Origin: an uncultured beta proteobacterium
GTDB taxonomy: Bacteria; Pseudomonadota; Gammaproteobacteria; Burkholderiales; Gallionellaceae
Assembly (NCBI GenBank): GCA_963733265.1
Contig: CAVTCF010000006.1
Span: 57,269-121,268 of the forward strand
Reading direction: 5' to 3'
Length of the DNA: 64,000 nucleotides
Made by a program: the position numbers and the translations under genes. Positions 14,217-18,700 of the stretch are shown here, one piece after another; within the stretch, counting starts at the first letter, position 1, and every line of letters starts with the position of its first letter. Below the pieces are notes generated by a model. The model did not search any database. It worked only from the letters and a program-made list of their open reading frames with translations, and was not told the origin of the DNA.

Positions 14217-15719
14217 ATGCCGAGTAATTGTCTTGTTGCCTGGATGGGGCGAACCGATCTTAAAGCTGCTGCGGGTGAGCGCGAGGCTGGCCTCGGCCCC
14301 ATTGCGCAGGGTGTGCAGGCGGGCAAGTACGATTCAATCTATCTTCTCAGTGATTTTTCGGCAGCGGAGTCGAAAGCTTATATCAAGTGGCTGACACCTA
14401 AGACAGATGCGGCGATTCACCTCCGCACAGCCAAGCTGACATCGCCCATCAACTTCGGTGAAATTTATGAGCGTGTATTGGAGGTGCTGGAGACAATTGA
14501 TCGGCACGGAGCGCAACTAACCTATCACCTTAGTCCCGGCACTCCGGCCATGGCCTCGGTCTGGATACTGTTGGCGAAAACGACCCACCCGGCTAGGCTG
14601 ATTCAGTCATCCCCACAATCAGGCGTCCAGGAAGCCGACATTCCTTTCGATATTGCCGCCGAATTTATTCCCAAGCTTCTGCAACAATCTGATGAGCGGC
14701 TAACTTCTTTGGCACAGGGTACGCCAGAAGAGAGTGCGGAATTCAGCAGCATCATCCATCGTAGCGCAGTCATGAAGCGAGTAATCGCGCAGGCCAGGCG
14801 CGTGGCCATCCGCTCGATCCCGGTGTTGATTGAAGGTGAGAGCGGCACGGGCAAGGAGTTGATGGCTCGCGCCATCCACAAGGCCAGTCCGAGAGCGGAC
14901 AAGCCTTTCATCGCAGTCAACTGCGGTGCAATTCCGCCCGAATTGGTGGAGTCCGAATTCTTTGGCCACAAGAAGGGCTCCTTCACTGGCGCAGTGGCCG
15001 ACCGCAAGGGCCACTTCGAACGCGCCGACGGCGGAACCATTTTTCTGGATGAAATCGGTGAGCTACCCAAAGCGATTCAGGTCAAGTTGCTGCGTACACT
15101 TCAAGAAAGTGAAGTCACTGCTGTCGGCTCCAGCGAGCCCAGAAAAATCGATGTCCGTGTAGTTGCTGCCACCAACCGCACGCTGATCAACGAGGTTGCC
15201 GATGGCAATTTCCGTGAAGACCTCTTTTATCGACTGGCGGTAGCCATTATAAAATTGCCGCCATTGCGCGAACGGTCTGGCGACATTTCATTACTGATTG
15301 ACGTGCTCTTGCGACAGGTAAACAACGCAGCTACGGATATAGGTATCAAACATAAGAAAATTTCTGTATCCGCAAAAAACCTTATGCTTCAGCATGTCTG
15401 GCCGGGCAATATTCGTGAACTGTTCAACACCTTGCAGCGAGCTGCCGTCTGGTCAGACGATGAATCCATTAGCTTAGAAGCAATCAAAGACGCGATATTG
15501 CTGTCACCCAAGGCAATGCGTGGTGATGATGGCATTTTGAATCGCTCCTTAGAGTCCGGCCTTGAGCTGGAAGCACTTATGACTCAGGTAGCACGGCATT
15601 ACATTGAACGGGCACTCGATCATACCCGTAACAACAAGACGCAAGCCTCTAAACTGCTAGGTTTTGGTAACTACCAGACCTTCACTAATTGGATGAATCG
15701 CTACGGTGTAGAACGATGA
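14217..15719 (+). CDS. sigma-54-dependent transcriptional activator with RtcR-like (CARF-type) N-terminal sensor domain
   Basis: AAA+ core: [14 protein letters not shown] (a GAFTGA variant), [19 protein letters not shown]. C-terminal Fis-type HTH: [21 protein letters not shown]. The N-terminal ~150 aa (..SIYLLSD...[29 protein letters not shown]..) resemble the RtcR N-domain as I remember it. Confidence 0.85.
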   Translation: [500 protein letters not shown]

Positions 15720-15740
15720 AAAAAGAAAAATCCGACAAGC

Positions 15741-15756
15741 TGGCACGTAGATTGCT
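15741..15756 (+). promoter_or_regulatory. sigma-54 (-24/-12) promoter
   Basis: TGGCACgtagaTTGCT matches TGGCAC-N5-TTGCW exactly. It lies about 20 nt after the activator stop and 40-100 nt before the possible hsdR starts. Confidence 0.7.
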
Positions 15757-15794
15757 GAGATGTGTGCATCCAGTAATTTTATGCAAGAAACATT

Positions 15795-18700
15795 ATGCAC
15801 GCCTCCCATACAATTTCGCTATCGCAGTCGGCCACCTCGGTCGAAGGGGGGCGTGTGCAATCTAAGAATTTCGAGTTTCTGCGTAATGCTCGCGCCGATC
15901 TGGCTGCCCTGGGTGGCTTTGCCGAGCATTATGCTTTCAACGACCCAGCGGGATCACTGGCTAAACTTCGATTATTTACCGAGCGAGTCGTCGATCTGGT
16001 CTATGACGCCTTCCGCCTACCTAAGCCATACCAACCAAACCTGAATGATCTTCTGAATGAGGATGCTTTTCGAGCTCGGGTTCCGACCGTAGTATTGACC
16101 AAGCTGCATGCACTGCGGATGCATGGCAACAAGGCCGTTCATGCCAACCAAGGCACAACGCCAACGGCACTGGCCATGGTACTGGAAGCGTTCGATATTG
16201 CCCGTTGGGTGTTCGTAACCTTTGACGGTGGGCTGGTTTCAGGCATTCATGCCTTCGTGCCACCCACGCCACCAGCCGATGCAAAGAAATTGGAGAAAGA
16301 TCGTCAGCGCCTGCTTGCCCAAATTGCTGAGCAGGAACAGCAGATGCAGGCAATACTGCAACAACTCGAACTGGCAAAAGCCCAACAAGTAACCGTTGAG
16401 CGGACTGAAGATGAATTGCAGCAGTTGGTTGCCAATGGTAGTGCTGCCGCAGATCAACTCGCTTTTGACGAGGCAACTACCCGACAGCGGCTGATCGACG
16501 CCATGCTCGTTTCCGTTGGATGGAAAGTCGGGCAAGCTGGCGCATCAACTGACGAAGTTGGCCAGGAGATTGAAATTCCGCAACCGCAGAACAAGACCGG
16601 CATCGGCTATGCCGATTATGTCCTGTGGGACGAAAACGACAAGCCTCTGGGCGTAGTTGAAGTCAAGCGTACCTCCAAGGATGCGGATGTCGGACGCACC
16701 CAAGCCGAGCTTTACGCTGATGGCCTTGAACAAAAATATGGCCAACGCCCGGTCATTTTTTATACCAACGGTTTTGACATCTACATTTGGGACGACGCCC
16801 AGAAGCAGACGCCACGCCGTCTGTTCGGCTTTTACTCAAAAGAAAGCCTGAAATACCTGGTCTTCCAGCGCCACCACAAACTGTCGCTCGACACGCTCAC
16901 TCCGAAATCAGAAATAGCGGGCCGGATGTATCAGATCGAAACCCTCAAACGCATTTGCGAGCGATTCAGCCTTGGCTATCGCAAATCGCTTGTCGTGCTG
17001 GCTACCGGTACCGGCAAGACCCGTGTCGCTGTTTCGCTGTGTGAGCTGTTGTCGCGTGCCAGATGGGCTAAGCGCATCCTCTTTCTGTGCGACCGGCGCG
17101 AACTGCGCAAGCAGGCGGATGATGTTTTCAAGGAATTCCTGCCCGGCGAGCCGCGCATCCACATCAACTCAAAAACCGCTGGCGACGTGACCAACCGTAT
17201 CTATCTCGCCACCTATCCGGCGATGATGCAGTGCTATGAAATGTTCGATGTCGGCTATTTCGACCTGATCATTGCCGACGAATCGCACCGCAGTATTTAC
17301 AACCGCTACCGTGATCTGTTTGTCTATTTCGATGCGCTCGAAGTGGGCCTTACCGCCACGCCCGTTCAGTTTATTTCCCGCAACACCTTCAAACTGTTTT
17401 CCTGCGAGAACGACGACCCCACTTCGTATTTCGGCTATCAGGAAGCCATCAGCCATGTACCGCCCTACCTTGTGCCCTTCGAGGTCTATACACATACCAC
17501 CGAGTTTCTGCGGCGGGGAATCGAGTACAAGAAACTTTCCAAGGAGCAGCAGGAGCAACTGGAAAATGACGAGGCCGATGCACAGTCCATCGACTACGAC
17601 GATACCGATATGGATCGGGTCGTGTTCAATAAGGACACCAATCGCGCCATCTTGCGTAACTTGATGGAGAATGGTCTCCGCGATGCAAGTGGTTCCCACC
17701 CCGGCAAAAGCATTATTTTCGCCCGCAATCACAACCATGCAGTATTTCTGGCGGGGATATTCGATGAGATGTATCCCCAATATGGTGGGGAGTTCTGCCG
17801 AGTAATTGATAACTACGATGTCCGTGCCGAGCAGTTGATAGACGATTTCAAAGACCCAAAGCATACGCTCACCGTTGCCATCTCTGTTGATATGCTGGAT
17901 ACCGGCATCGATGTGCCCGAAGTTGTTAATCTGGTGTTCGCGAAGCCGGTAAAATCCTATGTCAAATTCTGGCAAATGATCGGACGGGGAACTCGGCTAT
18001 GCGAAAATCTGAATGGGCCGGGTCAGGACAAAACCAAGTTCCACATTTTTGACCACTGGGGCAACTTCGCCTATTTCGAAGAGAGTTACCGCGAAGCCAA
18101 TCCTGCGATCAGCAAATCGCTGCTGCAAAAGCTTTTTGAGACCCGCCTACAATTGGCTGATACCGCGCTTGCAGTTGCGAAAGCTGATGCCTTCGACCTG
18201 GCCATCAAGCTGCTTCAGGCCGACATCGCGGCACTACCGGAAACCACCATCGCAGTCCGCGAGAAGTGGCGCGAGGTGCGTGAAGTCCAACGTGCTGGAG
18301 TGTTACCGGCGTTGAGTGCCGCAACGCGTTCATCCCTGCTCAAGGACATTGCTCCTCTTATGCAGTGGCGTGATACACGAAACTGGGAAGCAGCCTACCA
18401 GCTTGACCTGCTGATTGGGCGGATGCAGAGCGAACTGCTGAAGAAATCAGCCGAGTTCAATAATCTGCGGGACGACCTCATCGGCCTCGTTGCGCAGCTA
18501 CCCATTAACGTCAATGTCGTTCGCGACAAACTGGCCACCATCGAAAAAGTACGCAGTGGTGATTTCTGGAAGCTGATCACTGATCAAACCGATGTGGCTG
18601 CACTTGAATCGTTAAGAGAGGAATTGCGCGGAATCATGCGGCATCGCGTGGATGGGCCTACCGTCGGCGGCAAACCGCGTGTTCTGGACATTACAGAAGA

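Follow-up and report, generated by a model that had tools for sequence, protein, structure and literature searches.

The regulator and its locus

The 64-kb window analysed here (the whole stretch from position 57,269 to 121,268 of contig CAVTCF010000006.1, 64,000 nucleotides (nt) in all) comes from an uncultured organism, probably a betaproteobacterium, and contains the gene for a CARF-domain transcriptional regulator. A predicted sigma-54 promoter lies just past the stop codon of this gene and faces eight tightly packed, co-directional defence genes, the co-directional block measuring 20.6 kb. The elements at the regulator end of the locus are as follows.

14162..14190, + strand: putative sigma-70-like promoter of the regulator gene, TTGTTA-17-TAAAAT, from a consensus scan
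14217..15719, + strand: regulator gene (500 aa), with CARF, AAA+ sigma-54 interaction, AAA lid and Fis-type helix-turn-helix (HTH) domains
15360..15380, + strand: dyad ATTTCTGTATCCGCAAAAAAC, candidate enhancer (upstream activating sequence, UAS), 381 bp upstream of the -24 element
15741..15756, + strand: predicted sigma-54 (-24/-12) promoter TGGCACgtagaTTGCT (= TGGCACGTAGATTGCT), of the form TGGCAC-N5-TTGCW, 21 nt past the regulator stop

The regulator open reading frame (ORF) is intact, and its translation contains both motifs quoted in the original prediction for this DNA, which had proposed a complete bacterial enhancer-binding protein (bEBP) core followed by a Fis-type HTH. Pfam bears this architecture out. 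The Sigma54_activat domain (PF00158, E = 1.7e-70) covers residues 179-345 and profile positions 1-167 of 168, with Walker A, Walker B (FLDEIGE) and FREDLFYRL all present; it is followed by AAA_lid_14 at residues 351-428 and by the Fis-type HTH_8 (PF02954) at residues 460-482, the latter scoring 23.9 bits against a cut-off of 22. Ahead of this core lies the CARF sensor, approximately residues 1-148, within which the RtcR domain PF06956 matches residues 53-137 (26.6 bits, gathering cut-off 23.1). The PADLOC model PDLC01995, RtcR_PspF2--CARF_AAA_HTH, aligns over nearly the whole protein (E = 3.9e-202; residues 4-499 on profile positions 2-481 of 481). By these profile matches, the regulator is a member of the catalogued RtcR-like CARF-bEBP family linked to restriction-modification (R-M) and defence, the 'RtcR_PspF2' of PADLOC.

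Escherichia coli RtcR, taken from NC_000913, is 32% identical to the regulator over residues 73-427, a range that includes the beta4-alpha4 region of the CARF domain. The pattern H-x-[ST]-x-G-T...W-x-LLA...PARLIQSSP is common to both CARF regions, so that the RtcR motif which the original prediction had cited does stand at the equivalent place. The C-terminal HTH of RtcR does not align with that of the regulator. PspF shares 37% identity with the regulator across the whole AAA+-HTH part, HTH included. The exact regulator protein was found only on short metagenome contigs, and its closest relatives occur in Sulfuritalea and Accumulibacter metagenome-assembled genomes.

Fold of the sensor domain

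A sequence search of the N-terminal domain against PDB chains returned nothing useful, the best match being a DARPin at E = 1.9, and a comparison at the level of the fold was therefore needed. An AlphaFold2 model of residues 1-173, built from an alignment of 55 diverse relatives, reached a predicted local distance difference test (pLDDT) score of 88.3 and a predicted template-modelling (TM) score (pTM) of 0.80, and displays an alternating beta-alpha, Rossmann-like topology. When the model was compared with the PDB by Foldseek, all of the top 50 matches were CARF proteins. The best was Csm6 (6tug, E = 2e-6), and the others comprised Csm6', Card1, Can1/Can2, Cdn1, Cam1, Cad1, ring nucleases and VC1899, with query-normalised TM scores of 0.5-0.64. 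As modelled, then, the N-terminal domain is a CARF fold of the RtcR type, in agreement with the original prediction; the non-CARF fold that had been raised as its possible refutation does not apply. CARF domains of this type mostly lack a basic residue after strand 4, according to passages in Makarova et al. 2014 (PMC4012209).

A sigma-54 promoter next to the regulator stop codon

The site at 15741-15756 is the sole exact match to TGGCAC-N5-TTGCW in the window. Shuffled versions of the window lead one to expect 0.12 such matches, and one arose in 12 of 100 shuffles; because 12% of shuffles contain one, the match taken alone is weak and merely suggestive. Four further sites in the window, at 19221 (-), 31540 (+), 47548 (+) and 50387 (-), deviate from the consensus by one base. 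They were treated as chance occurrences, since the total of five matches at up to one mismatch, the exact site included, is near the 3.6 expected.

Comparison across the family makes the promoter call decisive, as far as sequence conservation can. Homologous loci were gathered from one genome per species (35 loci matching the regulator over nearly its entire length) and from metagenome contigs (80 loci), and 97 non-redundant loci had enough downstream sequence for a promoter survey. A match was required to agree at 9 or more of the 11 specified bases, to retain the GG and the GC, and to lie between -40 and +80 nt of the regulator stop. Such a -24/-12 match was present in 79 of the 97 loci and was perfect (11/11) in 46. 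The background, measured on both strands over 2.08 Mb of the same loci, was 0.0126 per 120 nt at 9/11 or better and 0.0004 at 11/11, corresponding to chance expectations of about 1 locus and about 0.04 loci, respectively. The commonest offset is 0-4 nt past the stop, compared to 21-36 nt in the clade of the window. The surveyed loci span Beta-, Gamma- and Deltaproteobacteria, Acidobacteria, Latescibacterota, Longimicrobiales, Planctomycetia and Myxococcota. The arrangement also occurs in cultured bacteria: plasmid pAcX50d of Azotobacter chroococcum NCIMB 8003 has TGGCACGGTCCTCGCT past the regulator stop, and a plasmid of Pseudomonas luteola FDAARGOS_637 has TGGCACGATCCTGGCT there; both also carry the dyad considered below. 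The consensus promoter that the original prediction had placed about 20 nt after the stop is thus both exact and conserved. The gene for its sigma factor, rpoN, does not lie within the window.

Some observations from the survey stand apart from these counts. Seven more perfect TGGCAC-N5-TTGCW sites occur in the 2.08 Mb of background flanks, and some of them could be additional sigma-54 promoters in defence islands. In locus L020, the opposite strand encodes another bEBP (18690-19607). In L008 (4229-4900) and L021 (11413-12100), TTGACAATATACCC...GGGATATA takes the place of the sigma-54 promoter, and after it come small ORFs (MDWTVEFTN...) that are possibly BrnT/RelE-like toxin genes; genes of this kind directly upstream of RtcR-associated CoCoNuTs are mentioned by Bell et al. 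(PMC11090510).

The downstream defence operon

The genes that follow the promoter, and the insertion sequence (IS) that bounds them, are listed below.

15795..19244, + strand: hsdR with N-terminal DUF4145 (Pfam DUF4145, HSDR_N, ResIII, EcoEI_R_C; PADLOC REase_I, E = 2.6e-298)
19264..20907, + strand: ShdA-like gene, with an N-terminal transmembrane helix, a long coiled coil and an RmuC nuclease (Pfam RmuC, E = 8e-98)
20904..22415, + strand: hsdM, overlapping the ShdA-like gene by 4 nt (Pfam N6_Mtase, HsdM_N; PADLOC MTase_I, E = 3.6e-175)
22412..23587, + strand: hsdS, overlapping hsdM by 4 nt (Pfam Methylase_S; PADLOC Specificity_I, E = 2.5e-61)
23599..25716, + strand: ABC/OLD-type ATPase (Pfam AAA_21, AAA_15, DUF3696; PADLOC NsnB, PDC-M55A, HEC-03B-like)
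25716..26591, + strand: 291-aa partner of the ATPase (no Pfam or PADLOC match)
26592..30125, + strand: druH of Druantia type III (PADLOC DruH3, E = 3e-128)
30155..36445, + strand: druE of Druantia type III, the last co-directional gene (PADLOC DruE3, 2362 bits, profile positions 1-2095; Pfam DEAD, Helicase_C, MZB)
36745..37692, + strand: IS transposase, the downstream boundary (Pfam rve, rve_3)

The first of these genes is the DUF4145-HsdR that the original prediction had named as the neighbour of the regulator. Its start may need revision. Homologues of HsdR begin M-x-S-x-NFEFL, and an in-frame GTG at 15855, preceded by GAAGGGGGG, which makes a good Shine-Dalgarno sequence, yields VQSKNFEFL; judged from this agreement, the true start is possibly the GTG rather than the listed ATG at 15795, which would put about 88 nt of 5' leader between the sigma-54 transcription start and the coding sequence. 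The type I R-M set is complete, with HsdR, HsdM and HsdS intact and their PADLOC matches near full length. Within it lies the ShdA-like gene, whose translation has a hydrophobic N-terminus and a coiled-coil stretch and fits the published description of ShdA (PMC11090510). Druantia type III is likewise complete, DruH and DruE being both present.

The remaining two genes, the ATPase and its 291-aa companion, look from their sequences like a poorly characterised defence pair. An ATPase with a partner of about 290 aa is also found behind family regulators in other loci, in some cases as the first cargo and in others as tandem copies: L002 (11638-14342), L007 (19440-21163), L025 (three copies), L028 (2171-3828) and L048 (13167-14875).

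From 19264 to 36445 the genes either overlap or are separated by gaps of at most 30 nt. Matches to sigma-70-like promoters are rarer across 15700-35699 than in shuffled sequence (5 found, 12.7 +/- 3.3 in shuffles), a depletion compatible with selection against internal constitutive promoters. The tight packing and the depletion are together compatible with one long operon. A terminator scan found no terminator between the regulator and hsdR; across the operon, terminator-like sites occurred at chance level in the terminator and sigma-70 scans and are uninformative on transcript ends.

Conceivably, the operon could be essentially constitutive, transcribed by read-through from the sigma-70 promoter of the regulator and from internal promoters, with the regulator and sigma-54 providing a modest boost at most, or acting on hsdR only, and with no true on/off switch. 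R-M systems need continuous methylation, which speaks for such an arrangement, as does the absence of a terminator ahead of hsdR. A weak sigma-70-like site at 19216-19245, just before the ShdA-like gene, points the same way, and internal promoters independent of RtcR are also expected by Bell et al. (PMC11090510). The -24/-12 element, however, is kept at a fixed place in 79 of the 97 loci, which implies strong selection on sigma-54 control, and sigma-70-like sites are depleted in the operon rather than enriched. Moreover, sigma-54 promoters are silent without their activator. On balance, a constitutive operon is unlikely.

Exchangeable cargo behind a conserved regulator-promoter module

What lies behind the regulator elsewhere was surveyed in 81 homologous loci with at least 1.5 kb of downstream sequence. 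The first gene encodes an HsdR-like protein in 39, HsdM in 5, a DUF3696 ATPase in 6 and some other protein in 31; those sampled from the last group were methyltransferase-specificity (MTase-S) fusions of about 1300 aa, HmaA, a DrmMI/type IIG protein and MkoA, all defence genes. The gene next to the regulator is therefore usually a type I R-M or other defence gene. By tblastn with E. coli RtcA and RtcB, neither rtcA nor rtcB was found on either strand in any of the 81 loci, and the window itself contains no rtcA, rtcB or second bEBP gene. The wiring to type I R-M and further defence genes instead of rtcBA, which had been proposed for this one locus, proves to be widespread; the contrary scenario, that of homologues invariably tied to rtcBA and of an adjacency confined to this locus, is ruled out.

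These surveys also bear on whether the adjacency is incidental, the regulator acting elsewhere and TGGCAC-N5-TTGCT being a chance match. The frequency of single exact matches in shuffles of the 64 kb would by itself allow for this. The downstream genes, however, are defence-type and co-directional, and the promoter recurs after the stop in 79 of 97 loci from Proteobacteria, Acidobacteria, Latescibacterota, Gemmatimonadota, Planctomycetes and Myxococcota, so that the cargo and promoter surveys effectively refute an incidental adjacency.

A close relative of the window defines the extent of what is conserved. The regulator of loci L084-L091 (P0001) is 95% identical to that of the window, adjoins housekeeping genes, and in L084 is followed by a different cargo: a shorter HsdR that lacks DUF4145, and after it HsdM, HsdS and a 1274-aa MTase-S fusion. 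At the DNA level, homology between the window and L084 starts about 75 bp upstream of the ATG, so as to include the sigma-70-like promoter at 14162-14190, and ends right after the -12 TTGCT. The upstream block of about 75 bp is nearly identical in the two, and the sequence farther upstream is unrelated. Between the stop and the promoter there are indels, and the N5 spacer differs (GTAGA in one, GGCAG in the other), yet both hexamers are kept. Because homology ends just past the -12 element, the regulator and promoter behave as one conserved module with exchangeable cargo.

In two loci, L034 (10001-11480) and L048 (10155-11502), the regulator homologue falls into two tblastn pieces, owing to an in-frame stop or frameshift; these split regulators may be pseudogenes ahead of otherwise intact HsdR or ATPase cargo.

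A conserved dyad inside the regulator gene

As the promoter abuts the stop codon, a UAS at a normal distance must lie within the regulator ORF. A generic search of 13900-15900 for inverted and direct repeats found only short, chance-level pairs, and the part of the gene's 3' end that encodes the HTH, which lies 70-100 bp upstream of the promoter where a UAS is classically placed, was conserved at the protein level only. A different picture emerged from synonymous codons. The codons of 31 family members, 38-84% identical to the window regulator in amino-acid sequence, were aligned, and the use of one codon in each column was compared with the expectation from each gene's own codon usage. Codons 381-389 hold four of the five strongest columns and seven raised columns in all: R387 is encoded by AGA in 15 of 21 sequences where 1.7 would be expected (z = 10.8, the top column) and S383 by TCT in 23 of 28 where 3.9 would be (z = 10.6), L389 as CTT reaches z = 8.4 and A386 as GCA z = 6.8, and L382 (z = 4.7), N388 (z = 4.4) and K381 (z = 3.6) are also raised, all of these z-scores overstating independence because the sequences are related. 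The fifth strong column, S106 as AGT (z = 7.0), is isolated in the CARF domain. In an independent set of 99 unique segments the pattern was replicated, with TCT in 82, GCA in 78, CTT in 58 and AAT in 73 of 90, and with arginine encoded by AGA or AGG in 46 and by CGN in 3.

The constrained codons, AAG AAA [A/C]TT TCT nnn nnn GCA A[G/A]A AAT CTT, contain a dyad with the family consensus ATTTCT-N9-AGAAAT. It is kept even in genomes with 64-71% G+C, and always at the same codon position, 350-390 bp upstream of the -24 element. Changes in one half-site are not compensated in the other (CTTTCT...AGAAAT, ATTTCT...AAAAAT), a pattern that favours a protein-binding site and argues against an RNA hairpin. 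We give roughly even chances to the candidate role suggested by this conservation, namely that of the enhancer of the sigma-54 promoter.

Only slightly less than even is the chance that the dyad serves otherwise, as the site of another protein, an mRNA element or a constraint unrelated to transcription, with the UAS elsewhere or the activator acting from solution. The dyad is a single copy per locus, no second copy having been found anywhere in the 25 loci searched. It is located some 380 bp from the promoter, farther than most characterised UASs, and the spacing of 15 bp between the centres of its half-sites is unusual for an HTH dimer. Neither the region upstream of E. coli rtcB (rtcBA) nor that upstream of pspA resembles it. 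The window copy is imperfect, with 6/6 bases in the left half and 4/6 in the right; near relatives carry AAAAAT as the right half. The dyad is also present in L004, L008, L015 and L151, where the promoter was not found. Set against these features, the constraint is the strongest of non-coding type in the gene and withstands high G+C, the half-sites vary as a protein site would rather than a hairpin, and the dyad lies inside the conserved cassette that runs from about 75 bp upstream of the ATG to just past the -12 element. In addition, loci without a dyad (L016, L027, L032 and L170) are also without a recognisable promoter.

A model for control of the operon

The regulator is probably the transcriptional head of the 20.6-kb co-directional defence operon, which it would gate in a ligand-dependent manner through the sigma-54 promoter. 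It would be made from its own sigma-70-type promoter at 14162-14190, and its CARF domain would, in the absence of ligand, keep the AAA+ domain inactive and non-hexameric, as in RtcR, where deletion of the CARF domain results in constitutive activity and ligand induces oligomerisation (PMC7790460). Binding of an infection- or damage-derived ligand to the CARF domain would then allow the AAA+ ring to assemble on DNA, the dyad at 15360-15380 inside the regulator ORF being the candidate site. DNA looping would bring the ring to the closed complex of sigma-54 RNA polymerase on TGGCAC-N5-TTGCT, and ATP hydrolysis would open that complex. Transcription would enter hsdR and could continue through the ShdA-like gene, hsdM, hsdS, the ATPase gene, the 291-aa gene, druH and druE. 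As to the ligand, passages in two reports describe the CARF domain of RtcR as binding 5' tRNA halves that end in 2',3'-cyclic phosphate, as well as RtcA/RtcB (PMC7790460, PMC9650030). By analogy it could be RNA ends with 2',3'-cyclic phosphate, which is only a lead. Low-level read-through from the regulator promoter would probably supply the basal HsdM and HsdS required for self-methylation, a plausible source given that no terminator separates the regulator from hsdR.

Several points weigh against this model, among them the single, distant and imperfect dyad and its lack of resemblance to the rtcBA and pspA upstream regions. The sigma-54 contact loop reads GSFTGA, a variant of GAFTGA; G254, F256, T257, G258 and A259 of the loop region are invariant in the family alignment. 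Activation of RtcR also needs binding of RtcA/RtcB to its CARF domain, as stated in a passage of one report (PMC9650030), and with these partners absent here the ligand analogy may not transfer. A type I R-M system wholly dependent on induction would leave host DNA unmethylated, so some constitutive expression must exist, and the sigma-54 promoter may only boost it. The literature yielded no expression data for the window locus or homologous loci.

A broader form of the ligand-gated model may be entertained, tentatively and with rather more doubt than belief. The regulator gene could be a self-contained, portable sensor-enhancer-promoter cassette, comprising its own sigma-70 promoter, an enhancer dyad within its coding sequence (codons 382-388) and a sigma-54 promoter joined to its stop codon. 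Recombination just past the -12 element would place this cassette before any defence cargo (type I R-M, MTase-S fusions, Hma, DISARM-like genes, Mokosh, ATPase pairs or Druantia), thereby rendering whole islands signal-inducible in at least eight phyla.

Relation to known systems

RtcR of E. coli and Salmonella, the activator of rtcBA and of rsr-yrlBA-rtcBA, has the same CARF/AAA+/HTH architecture as the regulator, and the E. coli rtcB promoter, TGGCACGACGGTTGCA, has a TGGCAC-N5-TTGC nearly identical to that of the promoter targeted here. The layout differs, in that RtcR is divergent from its target with an intergenic UAS, whereas the window regulator is co-directional with its cargo and the promoter abuts its stop. 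RtcR sensu stricto is moreover linked to rtcBA, a linkage seen in 0 of 81 loci of the window family, and the regulator is therefore filed in a paralogous RtcR-like family rather than as RtcR. PspF, by comparison, lacks a sensor domain; PspA controls it in trans, and its UAS and an integration host factor site lie in a divergent intergenic region. The concept of coupling a domain that senses small molecules or nucleic acids to one that binds DNA, in a protein heading defence loci, is shared by the WYL-domain proteins BrxR/CapW. Csa3, a CARF-winged HTH protein described in passages of Makarova et al. 2014 (PMC4012209), likewise joins sensing and DNA binding at the head of a defence island. These act on sigma-70 promoters as repressors or direct activators, in contrast to the ATP-driven sigma-54 enhancer mechanism predicted for the window, with its tight off state.

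The original prediction knew of no described example of such a switch; here it did not hold. Passages in Makarova et al. 2014 (PMC4012209) describe an RtcR-like family unlinked to the Rtc system and often found with R-M systems, and predict sigma-54-dependent activation of downstream genes by ligands generated upon phage infection. The regulator is a member of this family, with no essential difference; those passages give no mapped promoter or enhancer. A decade later, Bell et al. 2024 (PMC11090510) reported superoperons, co-directional and up to 40 kb long, that begin at the 5' end with an RtcR homologue and include type I R-M, ShdA, Druantia III and type II/III-A CoCoNuTs, and proposed RNA fragments with cyclic phosphate ends as the signal; the paper uses the word 'promoter' once and maps no cis-elements. 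The window has the same order, with the RtcR homologue first, type I R-M next with ShdA inside, and Druantia III. It differs in two respects: the published examples are from Pseudomonas, and the superoperons carry a CoCoNuT (CnuB/McrB, CnuC/McrC, CnuH), whereas no McrB- or McrC-like ORF was found among the scanned window ORFs of at least 150 aa and an IS follows druE. This IS may have cut off further cargo, such as a CoCoNuT. With PADLOC model PDLC01995 also in existence, the locus adds one more case to a kind already known, though so far from prediction alone, and the central idea of the original prediction is correct without being new. The literature yielded no experimental study of RtcR_PspF2-family regulators.

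What may be new is the promoter fused to the stop codon across the family, the boundaries of the cassette and the intragenic dyad. Anti-phage systems are mostly studied as if always on, and here a large island combining several systems (R-M, a Shield-like nuclease, the ATPase pair and Druantia III) appears to lie behind a sigma-54 promoter. The analysis adds a testable cis-anatomy, consisting of a defined promoter (79 of 97 loci), a candidate enhancer, co-movement as a cassette and cultured carriers, and thereby raises the question of which signal switches the island, and what the CARF domain would bind when there is no RtcAB. If true, the portable cassette would constitute a general, tightly off-by-default control layer of innate immunity whose cis-elements are not yet described.

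The surrounding genomic island

The defence operon sits in a mosaic genomic island, in a window rich in mobile elements. Besides the IS after druE, these include an integrase (4263-5288), a DUF772/DDE transposase (9025-10410), IS110-family transposases (10802-11764 and 49996-51420) and a Mu-type transposase (62048-63604); an AAA_14/DUF4143 ATPase and an NYN-domain protein are also encoded in the flanking regions (1-13000 and 49996-63604). Past the IS, in the region 36745-48283, the minus strand encodes a 1562-aa Rhs-repeat protein with a DUF6531 N-terminus, a 1048-aa transglutaminase/Big_7 protein and a leucine-rich repeat protein, a large, unrelated locus of the polymorphic-toxin type. Just upstream of the regulator and on the same strand lies an HD-domain (HD_5) gene at 13250-13912. 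In the island on the P. luteola plasmid (L174), an HD-domain gene likewise lies a few kb upstream of the regulator, together with two WYL-domain genes; HD-domain genes near regulators may be a coincidence or may represent other signalling components of these islands.

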